IMG/VR virus record: IMGVR_UViG_3300035670_000147
Span: 9,294 to 73,293 of that record
Reading direction: 5' to 3' (one strand)
DNA: 64,000 bases
Source: a virus
Part shown: piece by piece, positions 1,234 to 56,269 of the stretch
Position numbering within the stretch: the first letter of the stretch is position 1
Layout: each line of letters starts with the position of its first letter
The notes under the pieces: model-generated
What the model was told of the DNA's origin: nothing
Database searches by the model: none
Seen by the model: the letters and a program-made list of their open reading frames with translations, nothing else
Position numbers and translations under genes: made by a program

Positions 1234-1263
1234 TGATACAATCGTCTCATTGGCAAGGATGCC
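1234..1263 (+). promoter_or_regulatory. Extended -10 promoter (TGaTACAAT) followed by a GGC-AAGGAT-GCC hairpin (CsrA-like site)
   Basis: TGnTAnAAT at 1234-1242; hexaloop hairpin at 1252-1263 upstream of ATG 1280. Confidence 0.5.
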
Positions 1264-1279
1264 TTCTGGAGACGTGAGC

Positions 1280-1627
1280 ATGGCGGCTCGATTTAAACAG
1301 TACCAGTCTCTCTTGCGGATGCTTAAGAAGGAGTTGCCGGCTGCGTTTCCGGTCAGCGTCCGCCGCGTAAAACTTGCCCGCGTGGAAGGCCGGTGCTGGA
1401 AGCACGGCAAAAAGTTCCACATTCAGGTCGACAGCACGATCGACGAGCACCGGGCGATGGACACGCTTCTGCACGAATGGGCGCACGCCCGCGCGTGGAA
1501 CCACCGGCTCGACGCCGCGACCACGGACGACGAATTCAATAAGTTAGCCCATGACGCGGCGTGGGGCGTGGCATTTGCAGAAATTTATTCACTGTATGAG
1601 CAGCGATTCACCACGGCCAGCATGTAA
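1280..1627 (+). CDS. Small HExxH metallopeptidase-like protein
   Basis: TLLHEWAHA, with a downstream HDAAW motif (SprT/zincin-like). Start moved to ATG 1280 after GGAG. Confidence 0.6.
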   Translation: MAARFKQYQSLLRMLKKELPAAFPVSVRRVKLARVEGRCWKHGKKFHIQVDSTIDEHRAMDTLLHEWAHARAWNHRLDAATTDDEFNKLAHDAAWGVAFAEIYSLYEQRFTTASM

Positions 1628-1874
1628 ACCCTTAGCGCGCGAGGTGTTGTTATCCGCGGGAAAATGTTGCGGCAACGGCTGTGTAAACTGTCCGTATTGG
1701 CCGCGCCATCATCGAGGCAGCACGGAGTATGTTACAATGAAAACCTGCTGGGTATGTGGCGGCACACTGCTTGATATTCGCGGCAAATTGGTGTGCAATG
1801 CCTGTCGTACCGTGAACGAAACCTGCTGCGACGGCGGCCAGCAATGCCCCGCGACGCTAGAGAAAAAACAATGA
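1596..1874 (+). CDS. Cys-rich small protein (CCGNGCxNCPY module plus Zn ribbon); possible internal start at 1737
   Basis: REVLLSAGKCCGNGCVNCPY followed by CWVC...CNAC...CC; GGAG precedes ATG 1737. Confidence 0.5.
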   Translation: MSSDSPRPACKPLAREVLLSAGKCCGNGCVNCPYWPRHHRGSTEYVTMKTCWVCGGTLLDIRGKLVCNACRTVNETCCDGGQQCPATLEKKQ

Positions 1875-2539: not shown

Positions 2540-2548
2540 GAAAGGCTG

Positions 2549-5623: not shown

Positions 5624-5662
5624 ACGCCCCGCGCACGGATGCCCCAACGCGAAAGGATTCGC

Positions 5663-6298
5663 ATGGCCCAAAAACTAATAGAGATCGTCCCGACGAAACG
5701 CCAGATTCAACGCGCCCGCGACCGTGAAGAGGAAATGACCGCGCTGTTTACGGCACGCTACGGACGCAGCCACTTGAACAACTCGATTCTTGAAGGCGAA
5801 GGCATGTTCGCCGGCTTATTGGGTGAAGACCTGTTTCGCGATTATTACGGGTTTGTCCGGTCTTCTGGCGAAGCCATCTTTCATTACGACCTGCTAGACT
5901 CGGTGATTCTCGGGAAGATCGAGGTCAAAACCAAACGTTGCACGTCGGCGCCCAAGGAGCATTACAACTGCTCGATCGCGGCGAGCAACGCCGAGCAGCA
6001 GTGCAATTACTACGCTTTTGTTCGCGTGCTCAATGATTTCTCGCGCGCGTGGATTCTGGGTTTAATGCCCAAAGACGATTTTTTTGAAAAAGCGCTGTTC
6101 TTCAAGCGCGGCCAGACTGATCCGGCTGGTTTTGGTGGCTGGCGGTTTAAGTGGGACTGCTTCAACCTGCCGATTAAAGATTTATTGGCCCCGCCGCTAG
6201 TCACCCGCGGCTTTGACGATTATGATTATCGCCCGGCGCGGCATCCAGAGTTCACCCCCGAAATTGAAACTCGTAACCCCGAGGAGTTTGAAGCATGA
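5663..6298 (+). CDS. PD-(D/E)xK nuclease-like protein
   Basis: GLLGE...YDLLD...KIEVKTK...YAFVRV pattern. Two ANGGAN hairpins precede the ATG. Confidence 0.55.
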   Translation: MAQKLIEIVPTKRQIQRARDREEEMTALFTARYGRSHLNNSILEGEGMFAGLLGEDLFRDYYGFVRSSGEAIFHYDLLDSVILGKIEVKTKRCTSAPKEHYNCSIAASNAEQQCNYYAFVRVLNDFSRAWILGLMPKDDFFEKALFFKRGQTDPAGFGGWRFKWDCFNLPIKDLLAPPLVTRGFDDYDYRPARHPEFTPEIETRNPEEFEA

Positions 6299-6934: not shown

Positions 6935-7006
6935 TGCCCGGTAGCACAATGGTAGTGCACGGCACTGTTAATGCTGGGGTTGTAAGTTCGAGTCTTACCC
7001 GGGCAG
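6935..7006 (+). tRNA. trnN: tRNA-Asn (GTT), CCA not encoded
   Basis: Acceptor stem TGCCCGG/CCGGGCA; D arm GCAC/GTGC; anticodon arm CGGCA-CTGTTAA-TGCTG; T arm GTAAG-TTCGAGT-CTTAC; discriminator G. Confidence 0.95.
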
Positions 7007-10374: not shown

Positions 10375-10398
10375 GAGGCGCGGAGCAAGGACGGCGTT

Positions 10399-10854
10399 AT
10401 GCGCAAGCAGGCTTTTGATGGAATTATTATTGCACACCTTGGCAACACAGATGGGCGGCAACCGGAGTTAGAAAACACGCTGCCGTATATTCAAAAAGCG
10501 TTAAAAGAAGGCTGGCACGTTTGCGTCGATGTCGTATTTAAATACGGGCAATTTCTGTTACCGCACGCCCGCGGCCACTATGCCGCCCCGCCGGCCCTGC
10601 TTTCTAAGCAGCGTGTTTGGAGCCGCGCCTTTGACGCCGACACCGTCGACGCGTTGTGCAACATTGGCGCCCATTGTTTTTTACATAGCGACAATTTTAT
10701 GTCGTTAACAAGCGCGCAGTTTATTTTTACATTGCCGCCACATGTGCTTTCACCCCGATCGATCGCTATGTTTCCGGAAACAACTAGCGACGACTGGTTA
10801 AAAAATTTTGAGCCAGCGGGGCTATGCAGCAACGAGCCGCGCCGGTATATCTAG
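10399..10854 (+). CDS. Glycerophosphodiester phosphodiesterase-like protein (divergent)
   Basis: IIAHLGN...ENTLPYIQKALKEG...VDV. Start moved to ATG 10399, past the terminator. Confidence 0.6.
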   Translation: MRKQAFDGIIIAHLGNTDGRQPELENTLPYIQKALKEGWHVCVDVVFKYGQFLLPHARGHYAAPPALLSKQRVWSRAFDADTVDALCNIGAHCFLHSDNFMSLTSAQFIFTLPPHVLSPRSIAMFPETTSDDWLKNFEPAGLCSNEPRRYI

Positions 10855-10915
10855 TCTCGTTCTTTGACAATTTGCCCGCACACGCTACCGGTCAAACCCC
10901 GGTAGTTTGTATAAT

Positions 10916-11149
10916 TGGTGTGTACCGTAAGTTGACCGTGGTGGTCGGTCGGTTAGGGTTGGAGCCAACGCAGGGATGCGGCAGCGACAACATGGTTTCG
11001 TGGTCAGGTTTAGTCGTGAACACGATCGGAGGCGCGGCGAATACCACACAGGGCGAAATTCCTTGCCCTCGAAAGTTGCCGTGAAGCCTTGATTTTTATC
11101 AAGGTCGGACCCGCGGAAAGGGGATCGCGGGGGCTTGCGGTACACACCA
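10916..11149 (+). ncRNA. Unassigned structured RNA (~234 nt) upstream of the holin
   Basis: 17-bp terminal helix (10916-10932 with 11133-11149, two G-U pairs), at least 6 internal stems, preceded by GTATAAT and followed by T5. Confidence 0.6.
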
Positions 11150-11188
11150 TTTTTGACAAAAGAAACGACATTTACTGGTTTACGGTCT

Positions 11189-19444: not shown

Positions 19445-19557
19445 TTGCTCGTCAGCCAATAATTGCGAAATAGAATACCGTTGCCGAAATTCGTAATGTT
19501 CGATATACAAAACATTACGGAGGCTGACGTTCGATATATGCTACGTAAGGTGCAAGG

Positions 19558-20058
19558 ATGCCCGATCTGAAAAAAGTCACAGGGAAGTGCTATACGTTCC
19601 GCGGCCTCAAGTTTTATGCTGAAAACGGCTTTATCTGCCTGCACGACGAGGATACGGGCGAATTTTACGTCCTGACGCGCAAAGAATTCTTGCTGCGCGC
19701 TCAGGCGCTCTCCGAAGAAGCCGCCCGTCTTCGTCACGTTGCCGCCGCGAACCCCGATAAAGCGTCGTGGCTCTCCGCTGACCGCTCTGAGTTAATTCGC
19801 GCGATCGAGGAGATGATTGCCTGTACTAATGAGGCAAAAGAGCAGGGCGACCGTACAGACCCCGCCGTCGATGCTTGGTTTATGAAGCACCGACCCTCTC
19901 GCAAAAGCAGAATTTCGTTGGTAAGTGCTGCAGATTTTAAGACTGCAATGCCCGGCGCCCTTCCTTTAGGCCGAGATACTGGAAAACATGTCGCTCCAGA
20001 CTTTACAATGGGGGCTAAGCCAAATACCCCTAAAAAGTTAATTCTGCCGGGAGAGTGA
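19558..20058 (+). CDS. Hypothetical protein
   Basis: 166-aa ORF after a structured intergenic region. Confidence 0.65.
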   Translation: MPDLKKVTGKCYTFRGLKFYAENGFICLHDEDTGEFYVLTRKEFLLRAQALSEEAARLRHVAAANPDKASWLSADRSELIRAIEEMIACTNEAKEQGDRTDPAVDAWFMKHRPSRKSRISLVSAADFKTAMPGALPLGRDTGKHVAPDFTMGAKPNTPKKLILPGE

Positions 20059-20578: not shown

Positions 20579-20593
20579 CCACGGAAGGGTCTT

Positions 20594-20941
20594 GTGAGTA
20601 CACGGAAGTATTTTCAAGAGATAGCAGGCCAGCAGCACGGAAACCATCGCCTTTACTGGCCCGGCACGCCAGAAGGTTTTCCTGTAATCGCGCCGCCGGG
20701 AACCGCTCCAAACCTCAAACAAGAGGAAATGGAGAACATCGACTTCCGGCTCGATTTCAAGTCCAAAATGTTTGAATTGTGGGATACGGCGCAAAAAGCC
20801 GAATTTGACGACATCAATGATAAAATAGTCAACGGTTGGTACATGCTGCAAAAGCGGTCTGACCACTGGGACGACGAGCACAAACACTTTCGAATCTGGC
20901 TGGAGTGGTGCCAAGTTTACGGCATGATTCCGCCCAAATAA
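20594..20941 (+). CDS. Hypothetical protein
   Basis: 115 aa, GTG start. Confidence 0.65.
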   Translation: MSTRKYFQEIAGQQHGNHRLYWPGTPEGFPVIAPPGTAPNLKQEEMENIDFRLDFKSKMFELWDTAQKAEFDDINDKIVNGWYMLQKRSDHWDDEHKHFRIWLEWCQVYGMIPPK

Positions 20942-21970: not shown

Positions 21971-24900
21971 CCATGTCAGACCCGCTGCCCCCGCTGCGCG
22001 CCCCCGCTCCGTTTCCTCCCGCTCCAGCGCTCCCGCAGCCGACACCGCCACAAACGCGCGCATTCGGTGATGTTGGGGCTCTGCGCGACAGCATTTTTAA
22101 CGAGGCGCTCCGCTCGGCGTCAGGGATCGAGCCGATTCAGAACGACCTGTATACGTTAAAGTTAACCAACGTCGCGTATACGGGTCCGGAACGCTACTCC
22201 CGTAAAGACCAAAAGAAAGCGGTGTTAACTCGCGGCTCGTTGGCGCGAAAGTTAACAGGAACGTGGACTTTAATAGAAAATGGCTCGGAAAAGCCTGTCG
22301 CTACGCGACAGGCTACTATAGCAAACGTGCCATATCTGACCGACTCGGGTACGTTTGTAAACAAAGGTGTCGAATACACGCTGGCACACCAACTCCGACT
22401 TCGGCCGGGCGTGTTCACGCGCGAAAAAGATAACGGCGAACTGGAGTCGCACGTTAACACGCTGCCGGGCAAGGGCCGCTCGCACCGGTATTACATGGAC
22501 CCCAAAACCGGCGAGTTTCAAATCCAAATCGGGCAGGCCAAGATTCCGCTGATGCCGCTGCTGAAGACGCTCGGCGTGCAGGAAAAGCAGATACGGGAAG
22601 CGTGGGGCAACGAGATCGCCTCTGTAAACATGCAGAAGGGCGATGCGGGCACGCTGGATAAACTTTACAGCCGCCTCGTGTTCAAGCCAGACCCCGCCGC
22701 AGATCAGTTAGCCAAGATCAAGGCTATCGCCGCGGAGTTCGCAAAAACAGAGTTAGACGAAGAGGTCACGAAACGAACGCTGGGCAAGCCGTACAAAAAT
22801 CTCACGCCGGAAGCGATTCTCGACATCACCAAAAAACTCATCGCTGTTAATCGAAAAGAAGCCGACAGTGATGACCGAGACAGCATGACGTTTCAGCAAG
22901 TCTTTGGGCCGGAGGATTTGATATCAGAACGGTTTGTGAAAGATAAGACCGCGTTGCGTCAATTGTTGTGGAAAGCGACCGCAAAGAAGTCGCTCGACCA
23001 TATTCCCAGCGGCGTATTTAACAAAGCCATTACCGCTGCGCTAATTGGCTCTGGGCTGGGTTCATCGCTCGAAGAAATTAATCCGGCAGAAATCTTTGAC
23101 CATCAAACGCGGGTCACCCGCCTTGGTGAGGGCGGCATTGGTTCGATGGACGCCGTACCGGCGGAATCGCGCAGCGTCCAGCCCAGCCATTTCGGGTTTA
23201 TCGACTACCTGCGCACGCCCGAGTCTGGCAAGGTGGGCGTCGACATGCGCTTCGCGTCGGGCGCCCGCAAGTTAGGTAATAACTTGCACACGTTTGTCGT
23301 GCCCGTCAAGAACGCTAACACTGGCGAGACAGAATATAAAACCCCGCAAGAACTGTCGGACATGCCGCTCATGTTTCCGGGCGAAGAGAAGTCCGACCTG
23401 CCGATGGTTGCGGCGCTTGTTAACGGCAAGATCAAATACGTGCCACGCAAGGACGCGCAGTACACCGTGCCGAACATGGACAACACTTTTTCGTCGCTGA
23501 CAAACATGGTGCCGATGAAAAGCATGGTAAAAGGCCAGCGCGTCATCATGGGCAGCCGCATGTTTACGCAGGCGCTTCCGCTTGAAAATGCTGAAGCCCC
23601 GTTTGTGCAGTCCGCTAAGTTTGATAGCGACGGGTCTATATCGCACGAAGACGAAATGGGCGAAAAGTTAGGCGCGATTAAAGCCCAAGTTGGCGGGCAG
23701 GTTCTGTCTGTCACGCCAGACGACATGGTTATTCGCGACAAGGACGGGCAAAAACACACGATAGACCTGTACAACGACATGCCGTTCAACCGAAAGACGT
23801 TTTGGACGCAGACGCCGACAGTCAAGCCCGGCGATACGGTGCAGCCCGGCCAACTTATTGCCACAAGCAACTTTACTGACAAAAGCGGCTCGGCCGCGCT
23901 GGGGCTGAACTTGCGCGTAGGCTACACGCCGTTTCGTGGTCGGAACTATGAAGACGCGGTTGTGATATCTGAATCGGCGGCCAAGAAACTTACTAGCCAG
24001 CACATGTATCAGCACGAAGCCGAGTGGGACGACAACACGCACGTCGGAAAAAAGTCTTTTTTGAGTTTGTTTCCCGCCGAATATGACAAGAAGGTGCTAG
24101 AAAACTTTGACGACAACGGCGCAATTAAAAAGGGTTCAATCGTAAACTTCGGTGATCCGCTTGTGCTCGTCGCCAAGAAGCGCGATCAGGTGTACGGCAA
24201 AGTACACCGCGGCCGAGCGGGTGCTTTTGCAAATGAAACAATTACGTGGGAACATCATTCTCCGGGCGTTGTGACTGACGTTGAGCACACAAAAAAGGGC
24301 GTATCGGTCGTCGTGAAGTCGCAGGCGCAGATGGAGGTTGGCGATAAAATTACGGGTCGTTTCGGCGATAAGGGCGTTGTGTCTGAAATTGTGCCGGACG
24401 ACCAGATGCCGCAGGACGCGAAGGGTCGCCCGCTTGAAATTCTGGTCAGTCCGCTCGGCCTTATAAACCGCGTAAACCCGGCGCAAATTATTGAAGCGGC
24501 TCTCGGAAAAGTTGCCGAAAAAACTGGCAAGCCGTTCAAAATCAAAGACTTCGACAACGACAATGATTTGATCGAAATGGCGATGGCTGAGTTGACTAAA
24601 AACGGTCTGACAGACACCGAAGACCTGATAGACCCCGAGACTGGGCGCAAGATTCGCGGCGTGCTGACTGGCAATCGTTTCTTTATGAAACTGCACCATA
24701 CGGCAGAGTCGAAGGGGCAGGGGCGGTCTATTGGTGGTTACACGGCAGAAGGCACGCCGGCAAAAGGCGGCAGCGAAGGCGCCAAGCGTGTCGGCATGTT
24801 GGAACTGGGTGCGCTTCTTTCGCACGGTGCCGGCAAAGTAGTCCGCGACGCCAAAATGGTGCGCGGACAGGCTAACCCTGAGTATTGGACGCAGTTCATG

Positions 24901-26403
24901 GCCGGTTACGACCCGCCGCTGCCCAAGGTGCCGCACGTCTACGAAAAGTTTGTGAATCAATTGCGAGGCGCCGGCGTTAACGCAGTTCGGACCGGTACGA
25001 AAACGCACATCATGGCGCTGACCGACAAGAACATCGACGAGTTAGCGGGCGACCGTGAAATCCAGAACGCCGAAACCGTGGATTGGAAGGGCAACCTTAA
25101 GCCCGTAAAGGGCGGGTTGTTTGACGAAACACTCACCGGCGGGCATAACGGCAATCGCTGGTCAAAAATAACATTGCACGAACCGATGCCGAATCCAATC
25201 ATGGAAGAACCAATTCGGCGTACGCTTGGGCTGACAGAAAAGAAATTTCGCGCGATACTCGCCGGGCAAGAAAAACTGGGCGACAAAACTGGCCCGACAG
25301 CAATTCACGAAGCGTTGAAAGCCGTTAACCTGCCGCGCGCAATCGAACAAGCGCGTGCTGATATTAAGTCTGGTCGCCGCACACTGCGCGACGCGGCGGT
25401 GCGTCGCTTGGCGTTTTTGAAGGGCGCCGAAGCAACGGGCGTGCACCCCAAAGACTGGATGCAAACAAAGGTAGGCGTCTTGCCGCCGGCATTTCGCCCC
25501 GTGTCGACGATGGGCGCAAAAAGAATGCAACTTATCGACGACGCAAACTATTTGTACAAAGAACTGCTTGATTCAAATAACGTGCTGAAAGAAGCGTCTG
25601 GATTACTGTCGGATGTGGGCAACGAGCGGCTGTCGCTGTACGACTCGATGAAAGCCGTCTCAGGTTTAGGCGACCCGCAGCACCCGAAAAACGTCGAGCG
25701 AAATGTCCGCGGATTTTTGTCAAAGATATTTGGTGATAGCCCCAAGTTCGGCACGATGCAGCGCAAGTTGTTGTCGAGCACCGTCGATCTTGTAGGTCGT
25801 GCGGTAATTTCGCCCAACCCAGACCTCGACATGGACGAGGTAGCGCTGCCCGAAGACAAGGCGTGGGAGATTTACAAGCCGTTCGTGGTTCGCGGCCTTA
25901 TTCGGCGCGGAATGCCGCGCATGAACGCGCTGCGCGCCGTTGAAGAACGCAACAAAGAAGCGTTTGCTGAGTTAAATACGCAGATGGGGTCGAAACCAAT
26001 TGTTATTAACCGCGCTCCGGTGCTGCATCGATACGGCGTAATGGCGTTTTACCCGCGTCTTACCAAGAACAAAGTCATGGAAGTCAACCCGGTTATTACC
26101 AAGGGGTTCGGGGCCGATTTCGACGGCGACGCGATGCAATATCACGTCCCCAGCACCGACGATGCCGCGAAAGAAGCCATAGAAAAAATGCTGCCTAGCC
26201 GCAATTTGTTTGCGGCGTCCAACTTTAAAGCGCATTACGTGCCCAACAAAGATTACCAAACTGGTGTATACTTAGCGTCCAGCAAGATTAATAGCAAATC
26301 AAAACCGCGCGTATATCGCACCAAAAAAGACGCTCTCGCGGCCTACCGCCGCGGTGACATCGATGTAGACACGCCGGTACATATTGTGGAAGATAAAGCC
26401 TGA
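21967..26403 (+). CDS. rpoBC: Phage multisubunit RNA polymerase: beta fused to the N-terminal half of beta' (contains the catalytic loop)
   Basis: Beta motifs: GTFVNKGVE, TPESGKVG, GRNYEDAVVISE, GDKITGRFGDKGVV, FMKLHH, KRVGMLE. Beta' motifs: GGLFD, VLPPAFRP, GRAVI, NRAPVLHR, GADFDGD. Confidence 0.93.
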   Translation: MTMSDPLPPLRAPAPFPPAPALPQPTPPQTRAFGDVGALRDSIFNEALRSASGIEPIQNDLYTLKLTNVAYTGPERYSRKDQKKAVLTRGSLARKLTGTWTLIENGSEKPVATRQATIANVPYLTDSGTFVNKGVEYTLAHQLRLRPGVFTREKDNGELESHVNTLPGKGRSHRYYMDPKTGEFQIQIGQAKIPLMPLLKTLGVQEKQIREAWGNEIASVNMQKGDAGTLDKLYSRLVFKPDPAADQLAKIKAIAAEFAKTELDEEVTKRTLGKPYKNLTPEAILDITKKLIAVNRKEADSDDRDSMTFQQVFGPEDLISERFVKDKTALRQLLWKATAKKSLDHIPSGVFNKAITAALIGSGLGSSLEEINPAEIFDHQTRVTRLGEGGIGSMDAVPAESRSVQPSHFGFIDYLRTPESGKVGVDMRFASGARKLGNNLHTFVVPVKNANTGETEYKTPQELSDMPLMFPGEEKSDLPMVAALVNGKIKYVPRKDAQYTVPNMDNTFSSLTNMVPMKSMVKGQRVIMGSRMFTQALPLENAEAPFVQSAKFDSDGSISHEDEMGEKLGAIKAQVGGQVLSVTPDDMVIRDKDGQKHTIDLYNDMPFNRKTFWTQTPTVKPGDTVQPGQLIATSNFTDKSGSAALGLNLRVGYTPFRGRNYEDAVVISESAAKKLTSQHMYQHEAEWDDNTHVGKKSFLSLFPAEYDKKVLENFDDNGAIKKGSIVNFGDPLVLVAKKRDQVYGKVHRGRAGAFANETITWEHHSPGVVTDVEHTKKGVSVVVKSQAQMEVGDKITGRFGDKGVVSEIVPDDQMPQDAKGRPLEILVSPLGLINRVNPAQIIEAALGKVAEKTGKPFKIKDFDNDNDLIEMAMAELTKNGLTDTEDLIDPETGRKIRGVLTGNRFFMKLHHTAESKGQGRSIGGYTAEGTPAKGGSEGAKRVGMLELGALLSHGAGKVVRDAKMVRGQANPEYWTQFMAGYDPPLPKVPHVYEKFVNQLRGAGVNAVRTGTKTHIMALTDKNIDELAGDREIQNAETVDWKGNLKPVKGGLFDETLTGGHNGNRWSKITLHEPMPNPIMEEPIRRTLGLTEKKFRAILAGQEKLGDKTGPTAIHEALKAVNLPRAIEQARADIKSGRRTLRDAAVRRLAFLKGAEATGVHPKDWMQTKVGVLPPAFRPVSTMGAKRMQLIDDANYLYKELLDSNNVLKEASGLLSDVGNERLSLYDSMKAVSGLGDPQHPKNVERNVRGFLSKIFGDSPKFGTMQRKLLSSTVDLVGRAVISPNPDLDMDEVALPEDKAWEIYKPFVVRGLIRRGMPRMNALRAVEERNKEAFAELNTQMGSKPIVINRAPVLHRYGVMAFYPRLTKNKVMEVNPVITKGFGADFDGDAMQYHVPSTDDAAKEAIEKMLPSRNLFAASNFKAHYVPNKDYQTGVYLASSKINSKSKPRVYRTKKDALAAYRRGDIDVDTPVHIVEDKA

Positions 26404-26423
26404 TTGTTCACACGGAGGTAAAC

Positions 26424-27155
26424 ATGGATTACACGGTAAATCCGGAACTGCTCGCGCTTGCGAACCGGCGCGTATTCGAAAAATCGGCGGTAGTGCCTCC
26501 GCAGGGCGGCATGGGTGTCGACCAGTCGCAGCAACTCGGTATGGCGCCCCCGACCCCGGACGCAATGGGCGCGCAACAGCCGGTTGACCCGGCACAGGCC
26601 GCCGCCGCTGCTGGCGGCGCGCCCCCAGCCGCTCCTCCCGGCATGATGGACCCGGCTATGTTGGGCGCGTTGCCACCCGCCACTCCGACCGCGCCGGCTC
26701 CCGGCGCCGCAGGGCAAAAATTGAAGCCCGAGCAGATGATGCAAATGCTCGATTATCGGCTGTACAACATGCAGCAGCAACTCACGGCGATTATGAACGC
26801 TATGGGCGTGCAAGTCGCGCCGGAGTCGCTTGTGTTGCCTCCCGGCACTACTGGCGCGCCGCCCGCAGAAACTGCGCTTCCGGGCGGCCCCATGGCCCCG
26901 CCGCCGGCACCAGAAGGCGCGGCCGGCCCGCAACCCCCCGGCGGGCCCATGCCTCCCGGAGGTCCGCTGCCTCCGGGCGCACCGCCTGCAGACCCGGCAG
27001 CCGGTAAGCAAGCGAACTGGTGGGAGCGCGTCGAGGCGCACGCCGTTAGCCGCGTAGGCCGCCCCGTAAGCCCCGACATTGTGACCATTGATCTGCAAGC
27101 GAAAGTCGGCGCCGCGAAGGCGTTGCACCGGAGTTTAGCGGACGATGCTCGTTAA
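26424..27155 (+). CDS. Pro/Gly/Ala-rich protein between the RNAP genes
   Basis: GGAGG RBS; EKSA and GKQA flank a low-complexity region with a central helical segment. Confidence 0.65.
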   Translation: MDYTVNPELLALANRRVFEKSAVVPPQGGMGVDQSQQLGMAPPTPDAMGAQQPVDPAQAAAAAGGAPPAAPPGMMDPAMLGALPPATPTAPAPGAAGQKLKPEQMMQMLDYRLYNMQQQLTAIMNAMGVQVAPESLVLPPGTTGAPPAETALPGGPMAPPPAPEGAAGPQPPGGPMPPGGPLPPGAPPADPAAGKQANWWERVEAHAVSRVGRPVSPDIVTIDLQAKVGAAKALHRSLADDAR

Positions 27156-29319: not shown

Positions 29320-29365
29320 ATTATTAGAGTTGCGAGTTTATATTTGCCGCATGGAGGTGGCGCAC

Positions 29366-37894: not shown

Positions 37895-37911
37895 GTCACG
37901 GAGGTTTACTA

Positions 37912-38337: not shown

Positions 38338-38373
38338 TAGATACAATAACTTTTTAGACATGGAGGTCTAACA

Positions 38374-38967
38374 ATGCCTGCTCCTGAGCAAATGTTTACT
38401 CACGGCCTTGACGTAAAGAAGGGCTGGTTCGACATGGCTTCGCTGGATTACGCAGCGAAGTTGTCGCCCGACGTAGAATTCGTTGTAAAGCGCGGTCGCG
38501 TTGTGCACGTCGATACGAACGGCGATTTTGTCCCCGGCGTGCACCAAACGAACGTCGCCATCTTCCTGCTCAACGGCAGCGAAGACGCTGACGTCAGCAA
38601 CCCGGGTTGGGGTCAGGGTCAGGGTGCCGGCGGCTCGAACGCCACCCAGACCGCTGCTAACTTCATGCACATTGCCGTCGCCCCGACTGGCAAGATGTCT
38701 GGCCTCGTGGCTACCGGCGGTTACGAAATCTCGTCGACCGAATTCGTCGAGACCGGAACTGCTTACGTGCCGGGCCAACTTTTGACTGCGACGACAACGG
38801 CTACGCCGGCTGCTGGTGACGGCCGCCTGACGAACGCCTCTGTCACGCAGTTTGAAACGCCGGTTGTCGGTGTGGTGTCCAGCGGTGTTGCTACGAACCA
38901 CAATGGAATTGCGGCCCTCTCGTTCTGGTGTGTCTGGCTCCCGGGCAGCACCGAATGGGCGGCTTGA
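38374..38967 (+). CDS. Putative capsid decoration/cement protein
   Basis: Beta-rich 197-aa protein immediately upstream of the major capsid gene; YVPGQLLT...VVGVVS pattern. Confidence 0.6.
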   Translation: MPAPEQMFTHGLDVKKGWFDMASLDYAAKLSPDVEFVVKRGRVVHVDTNGDFVPGVHQTNVAIFLLNGSEDADVSNPGWGQGQGAGGSNATQTAANFMHIAVAPTGKMSGLVATGGYEISSTEFVETGTAYVPGQLLTATTTATPAAGDGRLTNASVTQFETPVVGVVSSGVATNHNGIAALSFWCVWLPGSTEWAA

Positions 38968-39005
38968 ACTAATCAACCCTAATAGAAGACATGGAGGTCT
39001 TTAAA

Positions 39006-39932
39006 ATGCCCACTCAGCAAGAAGTTCAACTGCTCAACGAGACGCTTTTTGAGCAACTTGACACCCCCGGCATGCAGAAGCAGGCCATTGACGCGGTTAA
39101 CGACTTCACGCGCACCAAAATGCGTGAAGACGGGTTCTACCGGCGGATTATGCCGCCGCTGACCATCACCAACGACGAACTGGACCGTCAGGTTGACACT
39201 GACAAGCCGGTCAAGGTGGTGGACAAGGAGCCCGATTCCCCGGCGGCTGTGTCGCTCCCGTTTGCGACACTCCCGATCAACTTCTACATCCGTGGCCCGC
39301 GCTACCGCGTCATGTTTGACCGGATCGTGTCGCCCCGCGCTGTGAAGGACGTCGACGAACTCCGGACGTATGTCATCGACATCCGTCAGGTGCTCAGCGA
39401 CAACATGATCAAGGACATGCTCGCCGAGGAGGACTCCAAGTTCATCAACGCGATGGACGCCGCGGTTGGCGCCGCGGACACGAACAACGCGTTGTCTGGC
39501 GTTCCGCAGAACGTCACGATCTCGGGCGGAATCACCCGCGAGACGATCGTTGACGCGCTGAAGGTCATGCCGTCGACTCCCAGCCACTTCGAGGTGGAGA
39601 CTTGCTTGGTGAACAACATCACCATCAAGGAACTGCTGAAGTTCGGCCGCGACGAGATGGGCGGTGACTTCTCGCAGGACATCATCAAGAACGGTTGGGC
39701 GGAGACCAACTTCCTCAACTGCCGCTGGATTGTCACGATCAAGCGGAATCTTGTGCCGAACGATGTACTGTACATGTTCGCCTCGCCGAAGTTTATCGGC
39801 AAGAACTACGAGTTGGAGCCCACCACGATGTACATCCGTCGCGAGGCTTACATGCTTGAGTACTTTGCGTACAACACGCAGGGCGGCTCGTTCGGTCACA
39901 CGAACGGTCTGGCCAAGGTAACGTTTGTCTGA
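39006..39932 (+). CDS. Major capsid protein (HK97 fold, inferred)
   Basis: 308 aa; strong codon bias; position after protease, scaffold and decoration genes; helical IKDMLAEEDSKFINAMD segment. Confidence 0.75.
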   Translation: MPTQQEVQLLNETLFEQLDTPGMQKQAIDAVNDFTRTKMREDGFYRRIMPPLTITNDELDRQVDTDKPVKVVDKEPDSPAAVSLPFATLPINFYIRGPRYRVMFDRIVSPRAVKDVDELRTYVIDIRQVLSDNMIKDMLAEEDSKFINAMDAAVGAADTNNALSGVPQNVTISGGITRETIVDALKVMPSTPSHFEVETCLVNNITIKELLKFGRDEMGGDFSQDIIKNGWAETNFLNCRWIVTIKRNLVPNDVLYMFASPKFIGKNYELEPTTMYIRREAYMLEYFAYNTQGGSFGHTNGLAKVTFV

Positions 39933-45096: not shown

Positions 45097-45148
45097 ACGC
45101 AGCAACCGCAGCGCAGAAGGGAGGTAATAAGGTGTTTACGTAAATACG

Positions 45149-45693
45149 GCCCGCGGAGTTAACAACTCGCGCGGGCAATCTATTTTGCGCATTTTAGTTC
45201 GTTGGCGCAGAGTAGACGTAGGACGAAACTAACGAGCACAGGCGAGCGAAAAGTCGCCCGGGGACAAAAGTCGCGACCTCGTCGGTTGCGATACTTTTCG
45301 GGGTGGTTGGTCCTGCACCCATAGAGATACCAGAGAGATAGCCGGGACGTCGCGCAAGCGAAACGCCGGCGACTCGTCTCTGTAAGGCACAGTACCCCGG
45401 ATTTGTAGTGGGGCGCGCAAAATGGATAGGCAGGCGCGTTTTATGTAAAATCCGGAGCGCCTGCGGGCGCTTATACGCCACGTCTGAAGGGCCTAGTCCC
45501 CGCAGACATGTTTCCTCGTTGTACCTTTCGGCCGCGATAATAATAACTAACGCGCGCCGGTTGTTGCCGCCATGGCCGGTGAACAACGAGCCAGTTAACG
45601 CGCGAGCCCGCGTAAGCGGGTCGTTAACGGGGGACGCCGGGTGGGAGAGTTGCTAGCCTCTCCCACCCGGCGCACATCGCACTTCTTTTTTTT
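45149..45693 (+). ncRNA. Unassigned large structured RNA or structured 3' region (~550 nt)
   Basis: No credible ORF; about 12 stems including a long-range 13-bp helix (45178-45190 with 45415-45427); ends with a 15-bp hairpin (45635-45672) and a T tract. Confidence 0.55.
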
Positions 45694-45723
45694 AGATATC
45701 AGACGCCGGGGTATAATTACGCT

Positions 45724-47871: not shown

Positions 47872-47970
47872 ATTTTGTCGCGAGGTGTTTTTTTCAAGCA
47901 TGAGTGGTTGTGTATACTACTCGCTAAGCACTTGACCGCACACAAATAACTGAGGCACGGAGGCCTTCGC

Positions 47971-50900
47971 ATGTCGAGTTATATCAAGCCACAAGTATTA
48001 GTCTTCCAAGAGTTCCGGATCGTCCCGACGGAGATCACGGAACCGCTGCGCGCCCACATCGCCGGCCCGCACGCCATCCTTCACCGCTACAGCGATCTTG
48101 ACGAGAAGAAGACCATTCTTCTTGGGCAATATGATCGGCTGAACGACATTTGCTATCTGTGGCCGTCGCGTCGGCCCGGTTCGATCGTCGACCTGCCGTA
48201 CACGAAGGTGTATATGGACGACGCGCTGCTGAAGTATTTCGACCACGTACTTCAGAGCACGTACACCACGATCACCGCGGTAGACGGCAAGTTCAACTGG
48301 ATTCAATCGGACGATCTTTCGTTTAAGTCCAACACGTCGGCTTATCCGCGCAGCAGCGACTTCCTCGACCGCGACGTGGCGGTTGGCGACGTCGCTTACC
48401 TGCGCACGGTGTATGACCGCGACGACGAGTGCCGCGAAATCGAACTGTGGACTGAAGTTGTTGGCTTTGCTAGCGACCTCGTCGACTCTTTGATCAAGCC
48501 CGCCGAAAACGACGAAGACAATCAGCCCAACACGCTGGCTTACTGCGGTATCCCGAACCCGGCCGTGGGCGACGATGGGCAGCCCGATGCTGACAACAAC
48601 TATTTGCAAGTTGCCGGCAAAGAAAACTGCGTCAAACTCGTCGAACTTGACGGCGCTGCTTACAACGGCCTCGCCAGCGGCGATGTCGAAGAAGAGTACA
48701 CTATTCAAGTTATTAAGAGCACCGTGTCGGGGTGCAACGCCGCGCGTCTGCGCGTGCGCAGCGCCAGCGGCCGCGACGATCAAGAAGAAGTTGTGCCGAA
48801 CGACATGGGCCAGTGGACCGAAATCGGCACCCGCGGCTTGAAGGTCAAGTTTAACGTGCTTGACACCGAAGCCTGCATCGACGCCTCGGTGGCGAACGAC
48901 GTTGTTTATGATAACTTTGTCACCGGCCAGAAGTGGGTCGTGGCCGTGGCGCAAGAGTTTTACGCCGCAGACGCCGACTCGGCTGCTGACGGGCAGTTCA
49001 CGGTGCAGTTGGACGGCGACATTGCCGGCGCTTACAACGGCGCTAAGAACGACGTTTACATTGTTGAGGTCACGAAGGGCGGCGCGTTGGACGCCGTGGT
49101 CGCCGATACGCTCGGCTTCCCGGAAATCACCGTACGCACCGTCAAAGGTCTCGACATGTCGGGCCCCACGGAGGTTGTGGAAAACGGCGGCGAAATCGGC
49201 ATCGGTACCAATGGCGTAAAGGTCATCCTGTCCGTCCCCGGTCCGGTGTCCGCGCTTGAGTTGCAAAACGGCGGCAGCACGTACACCACGGCTCCCACCG
49301 TGACGATCGTCCCGCAGCCCGGCGAGCCGGGACAGGGCGCGACGGCTACGTGCACTATTAATGACGACGGCGTCGTCGACAGCATCACCCTGACAAACGC
49401 GGGCAGCGGTTACTTGAATCCGCCGCAAGTCGTGTTTACTGGCGGCGGCGGGACGGGCGCTTCGGCGCAGGCCTCGCTGAACGTCGGACTCCGGAAGGGT
49501 GACAAGTTCTACGTCGCGGTCGTTTCCAGCAAGGCTGGTCCGGTGCGCAAACTCATCCTTCGCGACGACCTGCCCAGCGAAATGCGCGACACCTACGTGC
49601 GCGCTTCGACTGTTAAGCAGTCGGTCAAGGTGGTTGCCGACGCGAACATCACGTTGGAAGGCCTGCAGACAATCGACGAAGTCGAACTGGAAGCCGGAGA
49701 ACGCGTGCTCGTAGTCGACCAAGATGACGCGACCGAAAACGGGGTTTACGTTGTTAGCGCCGAGGCGTGGACTCGCGCCACCGATTTCGACGAAACATCC
49801 GAAATCTCGAAAAACGTTTACGTTCCGGTACTGTCCGGCGACACTTATGCCGGTTCGGGCTGGGTCGTGACGAACAGCGGCACGGTCGCCGTTGGTGAAT
49901 CTGTTATTAACTTTGTGCGCGACGACGAGGCGAACACAGATCGCCCCGTGCCGCTCGACCTGAAGTTGTTCATTAAGGACGACATCCAGATTTCGCGCGT
50001 CCGTCCGGAGACTTATGCTCTGACGAACTACTGGTTCGAAGACACGCAAATCTGCATTCAGGAAGGCATCACTGCCTATCATCCTGACTGGACGGCGACG
50101 GGCGTCGAGCAGCCGCTTCCCGTTGAAGCGGGCAAGGTGTACGTCGAGTACCGCGAATGGCTGGCCGAGTTCGCTGACGAAGTAAATTCGATCAGCGACG
50201 TCGCCGATCTTGACGATCTTGCCGGGCAACTTCACCCGGATAACCCGCTGAAGTGGGGCGTGTACAAGGCGCTCTCCAACAGCAACGGTACGGTTGTGAA
50301 GTACACCGCGGTTGCCCACCCTGAAGAGTTCGATGAGACCGGGAAAATCCTCGGCCCCGACCTCGACAGTTGGGTACAGGTGCTTGAGCGCATCAAGGGT
50401 CGCGACGATATGTACAACCTCGTACCGATGACGTTTGACCGCAGGGTGCAAAACCTGTGGGCTGCGCACATCGGCGCCGAGTCGAACGAGATCGCCAACA
50501 ACTGGAAGGCCGGCTTCTTCTCCCTTAAGGCCGAGCCGAAGCAACTGGTTGTCGGCGAGGGCGCCCTTATCAAGGGCGTGCTTGGCGAAGTTATGGAGCC
50601 GATGCTTGCTACGCTGAAGGACGACCCGAACGCTACGGGCCAGCAGTACACGTTGCTGCAGGTTCCGCAGGGTACGACTTTCGCTAAGGGCTACTTCATC
50701 ACCAATGAGGTGCAGCCGGGCGACATCGTGCGCTACAACTTCTCGGTCGACCAATACGGCGAGGAGCAGTACGAAGAGTATGTTGTCGATCAGGTTCTGT
50801 CGGAAAACTCGCTGCGGCTGTTCACCGGCGCTGACGCGCCCGTGACGCAGGAACAGCGGTTTGAAATCTGGCACAACCGGAACCGCAACGAGATCGCGGA

Positions 50901-51528
50901 GGACATTGCGCAGCAAGCCGGTTCGCTTTCGAACCGCCGTATCTGCGCCGTGTGGCCCGATCAGGTAGGCGAGGCTGGCACGAGCCAGCCCGGCTACTAC
51001 CTCGCCGCTGCGCTCGCTGGTCTCGTCTCCGGCGTGGTGCCTCACCAGCCGCTGACGAACGTTGAGGTCGCCGGTTTCGACGACTTCACGCGGTCCTACA
51101 AGTATTTCAATGAAACGCAACTGAACCGCATGGCGGAAGCCGGCGTGTGGATCGTCACGGAAGACCGCGACGGCACCCCGCACACCCGGCACGCTCTGAC
51201 GACGGACAACCTCGACCTGAATCGTCGGGAAGAGATGATCCGCCGCAATGTGGACTCGATGTCGTACCTGTTCCTGCGTCGGCTGCGTCCGTTCATCGGC
51301 CGCACCAACGTGCAGCCCGGCATGTTGCGTCGTCTGAAGTTCGAGGTCGAAACAATCATCAACTTCCTGTCTAACAACGGCAACACGGAAGAACTGGGCT
51401 CGCAGTTAATCTCCGGCGAAATCCGGAAACTGCAAGTGCATCCGCTGCTGAAGGACCGGATTGAGATTGTGCTGGACCTCGTTGTTCCGGCGCCGCTCAA
51501 CAACATCGAACTGCACTTGGTCGTCTGA
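47971..51528 (+). CDS. Contractile tail sheath protein with inserted domains
   Basis: N-terminal YIKPQVLVFQE; C-terminal PGYYLAAALAG...QPLTN...RHALTT...RRNVD...VPAPLNNIELHLVV. Confidence 0.85.
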   Translation: MSSYIKPQVLVFQEFRIVPTEITEPLRAHIAGPHAILHRYSDLDEKKTILLGQYDRLNDICYLWPSRRPGSIVDLPYTKVYMDDALLKYFDHVLQSTYTTITAVDGKFNWIQSDDLSFKSNTSAYPRSSDFLDRDVAVGDVAYLRTVYDRDDECREIELWTEVVGFASDLVDSLIKPAENDEDNQPNTLAYCGIPNPAVGDDGQPDADNNYLQVAGKENCVKLVELDGAAYNGLASGDVEEEYTIQVIKSTVSGCNAARLRVRSASGRDDQEEVVPNDMGQWTEIGTRGLKVKFNVLDTEACIDASVANDVVYDNFVTGQKWVVAVAQEFYAADADSAADGQFTVQLDGDIAGAYNGAKNDVYIVEVTKGGALDAVVADTLGFPEITVRTVKGLDMSGPTEVVENGGEIGIGTNGVKVILSVPGPVSALELQNGGSTYTTAPTVTIVPQPGEPGQGATATCTINDDGVVDSITLTNAGSGYLNPPQVVFTGGGGTGASAQASLNVGLRKGDKFYVAVVSSKAGPVRKLILRDDLPSEMRDTYVRASTVKQSVKVVADANITLEGLQTIDEVELEAGERVLVVDQDDATENGVYVVSAEAWTRATDFDETSEISKNVYVPVLSGDTYAGSGWVVTNSGTVAVGESVINFVRDDEANTDRPVPLDLKLFIKDDIQISRVRPETYALTNYWFEDTQICIQEGITAYHPDWTATGVEQPLPVEAGKVYVEYREWLAEFADEVNSISDVADLDDLAGQLHPDNPLKWGVYKALSNSNGTVVKYTAVAHPEEFDETGKILGPDLDSWVQVLERIKGRDDMYNLVPMTFDRRVQNLWAAHIGAESNEIANNWKAGFFSLKAEPKQLVVGEGALIKGVLGEVMEPMLATLKDDPNATGQQYTLLQVPQGTTFAKGYFITNEVQPGDIVRYNFSVDQYGEEQYEEYVVDQVLSENSLRLFTGADAPVTQEQRFEIWHNRNRNEIAEDIAQQAGSLSNRRICAVWPDQVGEAGTSQPGYYLAAALAGLVSGVVPHQPLTNVEVAGFDDFTRSYKYFNETQLNRMAEAGVWIVTEDRDGTPHTRHALTTDNLDLNRREEMIRRNVDSMSYLFLRRLRPFIGRTNVQPGMLRRLKFEVETIINFLSNNGNTEELGSQLISGEIRKLQVHPLLKDRIEIVLDLVVPAPLNNIELHLVV

Positions 51529-52024: not shown

Positions 52025-52050
52025 TTCGTTTAATATTGGCTTATACCGAA

Positions 52051-55100: not shown

Positions 55101-55237
55101 TTGAAGGTGGCGGGTATATCGATAAAAAACGAAACCCCGCGCCGGGGCTGGCCGGAGAATACCGCGACCCCGAGTTCAAACAACCTCGTCCGCAGATCAT
55201 CAACGGTTACTACCCGATCGTACCCCGCCCCAAATAG
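52139..55237 (+). CDS. Baseplate spike/hub protein (gp5/VgrG-like OB fold plus beta-rich region)
   Basis: YIPGTRVIVM...GVILGAIP OB-fold pattern; beta-helix-like region (GGEIRMTGG..ISAPGDIWLKGG). Confidence 0.55.
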   Translation: MDKMAENGDNSAGQSGGKTSFGVDVPSAMNAAANIANAMIGGGKTTNAVGGIALGGIAAVANAATGGAMSQTHKGTGVGSSPTTQTQYFHDPSAAARSVLRQIVGRGVLGDYGSNLASVADPFLNMVGYKTGFQDTGRILTGIIHDGTPIANNYIVHPDHGHNPVIAVAMTHTSSAAFGVTELNTYIPGTRVIVMIQDKDYRGVILGAIPHTLECGKRAFQDYYSQASRNRVDDCQKKHIKQEKSSNMADYANWRPYDATLAGEWGAISSTGARITLDDFMFQTAVNEFCGVYGFYHDSLLRIAGYNMQVWTAGSERDAYMDQAECNDSQGYTPYPWEGMGVLIPGPPIIEEYEPGCYHCFEQKPYYSRWENKHEFAQPYHRSQIFYGYLGQGMRQLVHAPPPGKERWTYKGVPGPTGDTPFDSKVEPRRNGGTLSYNCEGGPDKDKDHQEEPVYGLSEENKALDGRLFLASAKGVHISKRILLPFPQRIKRPEDYKNGDEAEKNYKAASKYGSGPEHDITGTIKTTDDQYPNFQRAAALLDLHGYLYNYAGLHAFYWHEKDYKTWEQQDLPYAKTNQKIPKFNRLLGKMYLKEEIPVNFKIDHRYDKKGEQKFYETESFVSLLEDGGIVIGDGYGGEIRMTGGCVFISAPGDIWLKGGRDVQTWAGNDVIARANKTVDISATEKNVRIKAERNVLVLAGNETSDREGGILLESRSKTTIYDFEKCGDEILFGGVVMRAPKSNVVALAKDIYLRTGGGEVEKGDIYIDASVGEKDIITKSNDIHHFVKEEGRIYQYFGGQEVGGATKANMFSKNINLLCDDTSIGGNAFINGFVLCNRDIFVHDGHIFTKDAEQTPMVLPCTGECTTEVGKALDEFRVLTNLTIPKAGDKVDEAQALKWYIEKRAGNDRVMTIMEFSFRKDDDYDIDDFMLYEDRWQQMARIGGQDPDKWKERPVPVKVCEETYPFPGKKWLQDKPAYKEQDFKIVQLEGGGYIDKKRNPAPGLAGEYRDPEFKQPRPQIINGYYPIVPRPK

Positions 55238-55252
55238 CAATAAGGATGCGCT

Positions 55253-56269
55253 ATGGAACTGGTTGAAAACGTTTACGTCTCTGACTTCACCAAAAAAACG
55301 CTGGAGCAATTTGGCTGGAAAACCGGCGACGCTATCCCCGCCGACCTTGGCGGTTTGATGATCAAAATGAAAGAAACGTTGCCTACGTCAAAACGCGACG
55401 ACGTTTTGGTCGACAAGGACGTTATGTCTGAAGAACAGGTTGAAACAGTCACAAATATGCTGCGCGAAGCGCGGGACCTCGGGCGCAAGAAAAAGAAGGA
55501 AGAAGAGTTAAACGAACAAACAAAAAATATGGCCGACAGCGTCAGTGAAGTTTACAAGCAAATCGTAAAGGCGACTGAAGGGCCAGAAATTATTGACGAC
55601 CGAGAAGAAGCAGCCAGTCAAAGCGAACCACCAGCGCCCGCGGCAGCACCAGAAAAGCCGGAAGAAAAAAAAGAAGAGCCAGCGCCTGCAACAGCAGCAA
55701 CACCCCAGCCCGAAGAAAATTTGCGGCCGGCCGTTGTCGCGTACTGCCCGCGCTGCGGCTGGGACATGCGGCAAAAATTCGACATTGTCCCGACAGACCG
55801 GGACAAAGAGGATTTTATTGCAACGCTGCTGGGCGGCTCGCGATTTAAGAAAAAGTACGAGTTGTTTGGCGGTAAAGTTGTGATTACGTTTCGCAGCCTG
55901 CTCGCCGAAGAGAACAAACTGGTATACCGCCAGTTAGTGCTCGACCAGCAAAAAAACAAAGTAGCCACCGAAGCCGAATGGTTCGTGCAAATGATGGACT
56001 ACCGGCTGGCCTGCTCGCTGGAGACGATCGCGGACAAGAAAGGCAAAGTTATCGCCTCAATTCCGCTGCTGGAAGAAATGAATTGGGACGGAAATAGCGA
56101 CGAACCGCTTGCCACTCCGCTTCCTAAACAATTAGCGTTAGTAAACCAACACTTGGCTCAAGAAGCAACAAGGCGCCTTGTCGGCACGCACCTCCGACAA
56201 TTTCAACGGCTCCTTGAAGGCCTTGAAGCCATGGCGCTTGAACCAAATTTTTGGAACGGGATCGAATAG
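55253..56269 (+). CDS. Tail assembly chaperone (G-like)
   Basis: Two genes upstream of the tape measure; ends at a slippery heptamer. Confidence 0.65.
   Translation: MELVENVYVSDFTKKTLEQFGWKTGDAIPADLGGLMIKMKETLPTSKRDDVLVDKDVMSEEQVETVTNMLREARDLGRKKKKEEELNEQTKNMADSVSEVYKQIVKATEGPEIIDDREEAASQSEPPAPAAAPEKPEEKKEEPAPATAATPQPEENLRPAVVAYCPRCGWDMRQKFDIVPTDRDKEDFIATLLGGSRFKKKYELFGGKVVITFRSLLAEENKLVYRQLVLDQQKNKVATEAEWFVQMMDYRLACSLETIADKKGKVIASIPLLEEMNWDGNSDEPLATPLPKQLALVNQHLAQEATRRLVGTHLRQFQRLLEGLEAMALEPNFWNGIE
56245..56251 (+). other. -1 programmed ribosomal frameshift site A_AAT_TTT
   Basis: X_XXY_YYZ in the frame of 55253; the -1 frame continues into ORF 56251..56679. Confidence 0.75.

Follow-up and report, generated by a model that had tools for sequence, protein, structure and literature searches.

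Candidate CsrA-type hairpin operators over the ribosome-binding sites of capsid, sheath and other genes in a lineage of jumbo phages

A 64,000-nucleotide stretch of viral DNA (hereafter, the window), corresponding to bases 9294-73293 of the 73,293-bp IMG/VR virus record IMGVR_UViG_3300035670_000147, was analysed for hairpins resembling the operators of the bacterial translational regulator CsrA/RsmA. At a small set of genes, including those encoding the major capsid protein and the tail sheath, the Shine-Dalgarno (SD) sequence is built into a short hairpin with an ANGGAN hexaloop. These hairpins exceed chance expectation, show compensatory changes in related phages and display GGA in a single, specific loop register, and near-complete related phages that bear them encode csrA. 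The explanation that we favour, and hold to be probable, is that the hairpins are operators for a phage-encoded CsrA tuning the translation of virion genes, with binding, direction and timing of this control all putative.

A preliminary description of the window, made from its sequence, had proposed CsrA/Rsm-type sites over the ribosome-binding sites (RBSs) of virion genes, and all 14 sequence strings quoted in it were found where it had placed them. The proposal came through all the computational tests that were run, with a consensus match and csrA in relatives to its credit, whereas about half of the listed sites proved to be chance pairings or ordinary SDs and the link to csrA amounts to one evolutionary contrast.

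Enrichment of hairpins near start codons

The SD of this phage typically reads GGAG, AGGAG or GGAGG, so that ANGGAN near starts is expected anyway and the real question is whether the flanks pair beyond chance. Sites were defined as ANGGAN hexamers 6-25 nt upstream of predicted starts in the 73-kb record, stems as contiguous Watson-Crick or G-U pairs, and in the null model the 3' flanks were permuted among sites 20,000 times with loop and SD retained. Among the 24 hexamers near predicted starts (19 of them within the window), stems of at least 3, 4 and 5 bp were found at 7, 5 and 4 sites, against 1.83, 0.87 and 0.33 expected (p = 0.0005, 0.00045 and <5e-5, respectively). The enrichment anticipated by the preliminary description is thus present under an SD-preserving null. 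At the remaining ANGGAN hexamers on the coding strand, stems of at least 5 bp occurred in 5 out of 203.

All strong hairpin cases fall in a six-gene set sharing CAYGGAGG, a motif found 8 times on the + strand and 0 times on the - strand, with 6/8 occurrences no more than 28 nt from a start. A hairpin of at least 4 bp precedes 5 of the 68 called genes of the record, and 9 genes carry the linear motif CANGGANG near their start; the earlier wording of "many genes" was therefore an overstatement. In terms of GGA sites, CANGGANG is present at 9/45 of those near starts in this record, compared with 28/755 inside genes.

Covariation and conservation of the leaders in related phages

The capsid leader was aligned across 42 distinct sequences (63 loci examined; two loci without an upstream GGAG, both csrA-lacking, were excluded). 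Most relatives retain a stem-A[CT]GGAG-stem arrangement ending 3-6 nt before the start, while the stems themselves vary widely: GAAGAC/GTCTTT, AGAAC/GTTCT, GGAAC/GTTCC, GGAC/GTCC, GCAC/GTGC, GATC/GATC, TTC/GAA and TAAC/GTTA. The alignment contains 34 doubly compensated cells versus 13.3 in shuffles, and the covariation score is 0.369 versus 0.130; 0/500 shuffles reach either observed value, and every slid register scores lower. For gene 26424, the leader alignment (27 distinct sequences, 42 loci) gave 20 doubly compensated cells against 11.8 in shuffles (0/500), with 68.9% of cells paired. Formal covariation is therefore a property of the capsid leader and, more weakly, of the gene 26424 leader.

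Seven hairpins are kept in relatives, namely those at 1252, 5649, 26405, 29346, 38354, 38985 and 47952 (Table 1; relatives are referred to by our own labels, such as G001). In the capsid leader, the SD GGAGG is formed by the loop plus the first 3' stem base, and the hairpin is the minimum free energy (MFE) structure of the leader. The hairpin at 38354 retains its AGAC/GTCT core in close relatives, and compensated variants were found (AAAC/GTTT, AGCAT/GTGCT and GTGAAC/GTTCAC). The sheath-leader hairpin is identical in G001, retains a GGC/GCC core in G003 and G012, is weaker in G005, and was not found in the three csrA-lacking relatives; its conservation rests on 7 whole genomes, because a scan of viral contigs with the sheath N-terminus gave 1 locus. 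For a 44-nt context of this leader, the MFE favours a different fold. At 29346, CCGC/GTGG is replaced by the compensated CAGC/GCTG in G003, and the mismatch-containing hairpin at 26405 has a perfect 7-bp version in G001.

The two remaining conserved sites are more complex. The hairpin at 5649 is identical in G001, to which the comparison was limited; upstream of it, the ACGGAT at 5633-5642 has a 2-bp stem in the window and is kept in G001 with 3 bp. Around the start of gene 1280, the region 1240-1294 folds as a nested stem-loop (-19.2 kcal/mol, z = -1.6). Both G001 and G003 retain its inner hairpin, and in G003 the outer helix carries compensatory changes. The listed site at 37897 is not supported as a hairpin, being a motif match with a 1-bp stem in the window; the orthologous leaders of more distant relatives form 4-6-bp hairpins.

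Other sites listed as hairpins in the preliminary description found no support. At 19552..19561 (+), GC-AAGGAT-GC, the GGAT belongs to a GGATG that holds the start codon ATG (19558), the SD is the upstream TAAGGTG, and the arrangement is absent in G003; the idea that AAGGAT and ACGGAT are regulatory loops distinct from SDs fails at this site. The candidate at 20579..20588 (+), CC-ACGGAA-GG, has a 2-bp stem and is not conserved in G001 or G003. The site at 10386..10400 (+) is an SD-like AAGGAC with a 1-bp stem and is not conserved, its orthologous leader in G001 having a different 3-bp hairpin, GAC-AGGGAT-GTC. At 55241..55255 (+), a plain SD (TAAGGAT) with a 1-bp stem precedes the ATG at 55253, and relatives show no hairpin. 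As features, the 2-bp stems at 5633, 19552 and 20579 are at chance level. Just past the 20579 site, a second ACGGAA hairpin lies inside the gene, at 20596-20613, and corresponds to ACAAGGAAGT in G001.

Chance complementarity around ordinary SDs thus applies to about half of the listed sites (19552, 20579, 10386, 55241 and the 2-bp stem at 5633), and the fold energies of the contexts are unremarkable. As an account of the core set, chance has in our estimate only a very small probability, being excluded by flank permutation in five genomes, by register specificity (see below) and by compensatory changes across dozens of relatives.

Register and consensus of the hairpins across genomes

Whole genomes of relatives were tested with the same gene caller and flank-permutation null (3000 permutations). 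In four genomes with csrA, stems of at least 4 bp were observed/expected at 14/2.66, 11/2.81, 22/5.0 and 13/3.64 sites, and 0/3000 permutations reached the observed values. Three genomes without csrA gave 2/4.21, 2/2.99 and 8/3.65 (p = 0.94, 0.82 and 0.03).

In a scan of loop lengths 3-9 with all GGA offsets (28 combinations), the csrA-carrying genomes showed enrichment only for the hexaloop with GGA at loop positions 3-5 (60 vs 14.2 expected). The 8-nt loop at offset 3 (33 vs 13.1) represents the same hairpins with the closing pair opened, a trivial derivative. In the csrA-lacking genomes no register stood out, the hexaloop with GGA at 3-5 being found 12 times vs 10.8 expected.

The 60 hairpins with at least 4 bp from the four csrA-carrying relatives have the consensus C-[A-N-G-G-A-G]-G, that is, CANGGAGG. 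Loop position 1 is A in 53/60, as against 35% among near-start GGA sites without structure; a C-G pair closes 38/60, and G occupies loop position 6 in 47/60. The optimal contact motif of RsmE is (A/U)CANGGANG(U/A), and the rule obtained by systematic evolution of ligands by exponential enrichment (SELEX) places GGA in a hairpin loop (PMC5864733, PMC6849547 and PMC4347634). In sequence, loop size and register alike, the hairpin consensus agrees with the RsmE/CsrA motif CANGGANG. The outer A/U of the CsrA consensus is not enriched (28/60 at position -2). In the core window sites a short stem-loop presents GGA in its apical loop, and the site overlaps the SD, which is made of the loop GGAG plus the next G, with stems ending 2-6 nt before the start.

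The C-A located 5' of the SD is unexplained by pairing between SD and anti-SD. At near-start GGA sites CANGGANG occurs in 89/755 cases in the csrA-carrying genomes versus 14/601 in those lacking csrA (Fisher p = 8e-12); inside genes the respective counts are 404/11,237 and 239/9,906.

Occurrence of csrA in the relatives

The preliminary description had pointed to the rest of the genome as a place to look for CsrA. CsrA was called by a match to PF02599 above the curated cut-off of 27 bits, and csrA was found in 5/5 complete relatives first tested, after which ten more were tested. Among records at least 90% complete, csrA is present in 9/9 hairpin-bearing relatives and was detected in none of the 3 relatives without a capsid hairpin. 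Since csrA is rare in phages (83/50,697 GenBank phage records matched) and had been predicted beforehand from the motif, its presence in this clade is informative.

The CsrA proteins of the relatives score 49.6-89.8 bits and retain the N-terminal MLxLxRK (MLVLSRK-like), the GDKVRLG-like and the C-terminal HRxE (HR(E/K)E-like) segments. Aligned to the RsmE chain in the RsmE-RNA complex 2jpp, the G005 protein gives E = 1.9e-16; the more divergent G001 protein aligns to Bacillus subtilis CsrA 1t3o with E = 1.9e-4 and a 4-residue insertion. Judged from their sequences, these proteins are canonical CsrA-family members, aligned over the RNA-binding beta1 and beta5 segments.

The gene shows variation in copy number and architecture. 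G004 encodes a tandem-fused double CsrA, one 163-aa protein with two CsrA domains that is possibly a single-chain dimer, and the SD of this gene lies itself within an ATCGA-AAGGAG-TCGAT hairpin. G012 and G014 carry two separate csrA-family genes each, and a 20-30-residue insertion in the middle of the CsrA domain was found in one G014 copy and in the single G010 copy. In the more distant csrA-carrying relatives (G005, G012 and G009), csrA divergently adjoins a gene with InPase and HAD-phosphatase domains, and in G005 it also adjoins a 2H-phosphoesterase gene; there it is on the minority strand. In G013 (84% complete, no csrA detected) the InPase/HAD gene that adjoins csrA in G009 and G012 has a weaker match only, to a larger, paralogue-like gene.

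In the closest relative, with a capsid 98% identical, csrA lies about 22.7 kb past the point at which the window's record ends. By synteny with this relative, the csrA of the present phage would be located outside the 73-kb record.

A phage-encoded CsrA as the putative reader

In the explanation that we favour, the SD is built into a short hairpin that ends 2-6 nt before the start, with 4-7 bp in the stem, C-G as the usual closing pair and A-N-G-G-A-G as the hexaloop. Within the window the set would comprise the genes for the capsid and the sheath, the gene upstream of the capsid gene, and genes 26424 and 29366, probably together with 5663 and 1280. The reader would be a phage-encoded protein of the CsrA family, host CsrA possibly contributing. 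A dimer of CsrA occupying the GGA loop and the 30S subunit would compete for the SD, and it is this competition that would govern how fast, or when, the very abundant virion proteins are translated. A limited CsrA pool could create a titration threshold, keeping virion proteins off until late mRNAs outnumber CsrA; alternatively, the logic could be a buffered (homeostatic) supply of subunits, as in flagellin control. Binding by the phage CsrA, repression rather than stabilisation or activation as its outcome, and this biological logic are what we infer from the observations above.

A more ambitious version, which we consider unlikely as a whole, would have this clade of jumbo phages running a self-contained viral Csr circuit. 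Here, a phage CsrA (single, duplicated or tandem-fused) would clamp consensus operators on capsid, sheath and other virion mRNAs, so that the translation of structural genes would be set by CsrA titration and not by transcription alone, and the block could be relieved by the flood of late mRNA or by a structured RNA encoded at 10915-11150, whose ACAGGGAUGU hairpin in some relatives comes very close to the SELEX consensus. Such a circuit would be a counterpart, in viral assembly, of the flagellin CsrA checkpoint, and would provide the first function assigned to a phage csrA in the life cycle of the phage itself.

Several observations weigh against a role of CsrA. The preliminary description had seen no csrA in the window, and a CsrA search of the whole 73-kb record (36% complete) likewise found none; nor was csrA detected in two hairpin-bearing relatives that are 78-84% complete. 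The capsid tree groups the three genomes lacking csrA in a single, well-supported clade that is sister to all others, and the co-occurrence of csrA and hairpins is hence a single evolutionary contrast, which could equally reflect a host difference or a host shift. One of these csrA-lacking genomes, G007, accounts for the borderline excess noted above (8 vs 3.65, p = 0.03), with heterogeneous loops. The 46-nt leader contexts are no more stable than shuffled sequences (z from -1.5 to +1), so that the support for the hairpins comes from covariation and enrichment and not from stability. High-affinity CsrA targets often carry two GGA sites, which allows dimer bridging and is typical but not obligatory; on inspection, most leaders, those of capsid, sheath and 29346 among them, have one, and a pair was seen at 5633/5649 and at 1252/1268 only. 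In addition, GGAG-G by itself makes a strong SD, and "SD plus hairpin" covers everything except the loop A and the register.

Searches for accessory components point the same way: a search of 5 complete relatives returned no FliW homologue, and the non-coding gaps of G000 and G001 contained no cluster of GGA-loop hairpins of the kind that would mark a decoy RNA. Furthermore, six unrelated csrA-carrying GenBank phages showed neither a hairpin excess nor the motif near starts (6/6). In these phages CANGGANG is, if anything, rarer near starts (5/231) than inside genes (118/3594), a scarcity that may reflect avoidance of self-repression. The arrangement of hairpins and CsrA is therefore clade-specific, and carriage of csrA alone does not predict it.

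Part of this evidence fits a different account, in which the hairpins act purely in cis, displaying or partly masking a strong SD so as to tune initiation, or shielding abundant late mRNAs against nucleases at their 5' region, while csrA serves host manipulation. The loop plus the first 3' stem base, GGAG-G, is the best SD of the genome, the stems are short and melt easily, and the hairpins are found on genes of expected high expression (capsid, sheath). The published proposals on phage CsrA concern the host (PMC8450108 and PMC11879866). The absence of such hairpins from the six unrelated phages and the single contrast behind the csrA co-occurrence are also in keeping with it. Nevertheless, purely cis-acting hairpins leave unexplained why the hexaloop with GGA at positions 3-5 is the sole enriched register when other SD-masking or SD-presenting geometries are at expectation, and why loop position 1 is so consistently A when a G there would leave the loop open just as well. 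The csrA-lacking relatives, moreover, also use GGAG-type SDs, yet without an excess of hairpins. On balance we regard this account as possible, with odds rather against it.

The sharp, covarying motif of sequence and structure implies a trans-acting reader, and this reader could be something other than CsrA: another RNA-binding protein of the phage, an endoribonuclease cutting at GGAG, or a factor that only the hosts of this clade possess. Annotation is lacking for most of the genes in these phages, leaving room for such a factor, and the T4 endoribonuclease RegB is known to cut GGAG at the SDs of early genes. However, no match to RegB (PF10715) was obtained in 5 complete relatives (control genomes were likewise silent), and the motif and the CsrA/RsmE consensus agree at each point in phages where csrA is present, with no other candidate identified. 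A different reader appears improbable.

Comparison with known systems and significance

The phage hairpins share with the bacterial CsrA/RsmE operators (RsmE-hcnA; SELEX consensus RUACARGGAUGU) a GGA that overlaps the SD and lies in the terminal penta- or hexaloop of a short stem, the flanks CANGGANG, and a CsrA gene, here in the genomes of the relatives. They differ from them in that the targets are the virus's own structural genes, a leader mostly has a single site, the outer A/U is not enriched and binding by CsrA is predicted. Because it also serves as a strong SD, the phage site has G-G fixed at the last base of the loop and the first of the stem.

In the CsrA-hag-FliW checkpoint of B. 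subtilis and the CesT-CsrA partner switch of Escherichia coli, CsrA activity is coupled to assembly or secretion by a protein antagonist (PMC5864733). The likeness would lie in CsrA acting at the SD of the subunit that a large self-assembling machine uses in greatest number, a plausible logic for the supply of capsid and sheath. In contrast with the flagellin system, no FliW was found in the 5 complete relatives searched, and the likeness is functional only.

Members of this protein family, homologues of CsrA/RsmA, are encoded by other phages as well (F116, phi297, Vibrio and Providencia phages, and E. coli phage PTXU04). Smaller plaques resulted when the PTXU04 homologue was knocked down, and the authors of that work state that the role in the phage life cycle was untested (PMC11879866); phage CsrA homologues have also been proposed to manipulate host physiology or CRISPR-Cas (PMC8450108). 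Unlike this clade, none of the six csrA-carrying phages that we tested has CsrA-type hairpins on its own RBSs.

Classical phage translational operators include the replicase start hairpin bound by the coat protein of MS2 and PP7, and the targets of T4 RegA, gp32 and gp43. As there, a phage protein would bind RNA spanning the SD or start codon, and translation would be controlled apart from transcription. Those systems use phage-specific proteins and motifs, whereas here a borrowed bacterial global regulator would act on an operator of the bacterial consensus.

Within the scope of our literature search, which left supplements and subscription journals aside, we came upon no description of a phage whose own structural genes carry CsrA operators. 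Phage csrA homologues have already been catalogued, with host manipulation as the standing proposal; the present data point to a different use, a bacterial global translational regulator apparently captured and re-wired onto the capsid and tail RBSs of a virus. If true, this would give phage csrA a concrete, testable function and would add a layer of post-transcriptional control of late genes in jumbo phages that have their own RNA polymerase. It would also supply a compact protein/operator pair whose natural sequence variants could serve studies of CsrA specificity.

A structured non-coding RNA in the window

The preliminary description had included among its sites a hairpin at 10969-10980, CGC-AGGGAT-GCG. 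This hairpin is real and covaries (CGC/GCG, TGC/GCA, TAC/GTA, GGC/GCC); it belongs, however, to a separate structured non-coding RNA at 10915-11150 (Table 1), which also has a terminal loop with GGGGAT. In 4 of the 14 aligned relatives the hairpin reads UAC-AGGGAU-GUA, near the SELEX consensus. A TATAAT-like box lies just upstream of the RNA, for which no Rfam match was obtained at E <= 1. The RNA is detectable only in the window's subclade (G000, G001 and G003), a narrower spread than that of csrA. It adopts a closed multi-helix fold with only two conserved apical GGA loops, and for this last reason we do not classify it as a Csr decoy.

The GGA-rich gaps of G001 were considered as decoy RNA and rejected, being probable unannotated coding sequence or a GGCAGGC-rich repeat region. 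As an observation in its own right, the reverse strand of G001 has at 132592-133401 an 810-nt non-coding region with irregular repeats rich in GGCAGGC and GACACGGCAGGC and a terminator-like hairpin at its end.

Source record, lineage and gene content

The record has a CheckV completeness of 36%, and 68-71 genes were called on it, every one on the + strand. A megablast search with 10 kb of the window gave zero matches among GenBank phages, where distant capsid relatives only (28% identity) were found by tblastn. In IMG/VR, 65 capsid-related loci were found at 54-99% identity, many of them on 190-235-kb contigs with terminal repeats, from which we take the window to be a fragment of a jumbo phage lineage of about 200 kb. 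An attempt at host inference by scanning genome contigs yielded contigs of metagenome-assembled genomes (MAGs) only, one labelled as a Nannocystaceae MAG.

Table 1. Features of the window discussed in the text; positions are counted from the first base of the window.
Feature	Position	Strand	Description
Capsid-leader hairpin	38985..39002	+	6-bp stem (one G-U) around hexaloop ATGGAG; ATG at 39006
Hairpin TTAGAC-ATGGAG-GTCTAA	38354..38371	+	perfect 6-bp stem; precedes 197-aa gene 38374-38967
Sheath-leader hairpin GAGGC-ACGGAG-GCCTT	47952..47967	+	5-bp stem; ATG at 47971
Hairpin TGCCGC-ATGGAG-GTGGCG	29345..29362	+	6-bp stem, the MFE structure; precedes 800-aa gene, GTG start at 29366
Hairpin around ACGGAG	26405..26424	+	stem with one C-A mismatch; precedes 243-aa gene between two RNA-polymerase genes
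Hairpin GCGA-AAGGAT-TCGC	5649..5662	+	4-bp stem; ATG directly after, at 5663
Nested stem-loop	1243..1274	+	inner GGC-AAGGAT-GCC (1252-1263) displays GGA; outer helix pairs the true SD (GGAG, 1268-1271) of gene 1280
CACGGAGGT motif	37897..37911	+	linear-motif match, stem of 1 bp; precedes 141-aa gene at 37912
Structured non-coding RNA, ~220 nt	10915..11150	+	RNAalifold on 14 relatives: 69 pairs, 35 with compensatory changes
Major capsid protein gene	39006..39932	+	PHROG 2522 major head protein, E = 2.4e-5; tblastn match to the annotated major capsid protein of Salmonella phage Arash
Tail sheath gene, 1185 aa, inserted immunoglobulin (Ig)-like domains	47971..51528	+	C-terminal part similar to tail-sheath PHROGs 2839 and 279; middle similar to Ig-like virion domains
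Multisubunit RNA-polymerase beta/beta'-like genes	21973-26403, 27367-29319	+	Rpb2 domain 6, Rpb1 domains 2 and 5; amid virion genes
tRNA-Asn (GTT)	6935-7006	+	sole Rfam or ARAGORN match in the window

For the 197-aa gene at 38374-38967, which the preliminary description had labelled "decoration", no family assignment was obtained, and that label was not confirmed. Sequence searches of the Protein Data Bank gave no identity for genes 29366 and 26424, and weak repeat matches only for gene 38374.

The capsid open reading frame is covered by contigs of freshwater metatranscriptome libraries at 90-99% identity, and one freshwater metatranscriptome contig includes the hairpin leader of a relative; as evidence of RNA this is weak, since DNA carry-over is possible and contigs show neither ends nor levels. 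The longest stretch of the window without a called gene, 45097-45723 (627 nt), contains 10 GGA vs 7.5 expected and no GGA-loop hairpins. The sheath, at 1185 aa, is unusually long, and its residues ~390-650 match Ig-like or decoration-type domains common in virion proteins.

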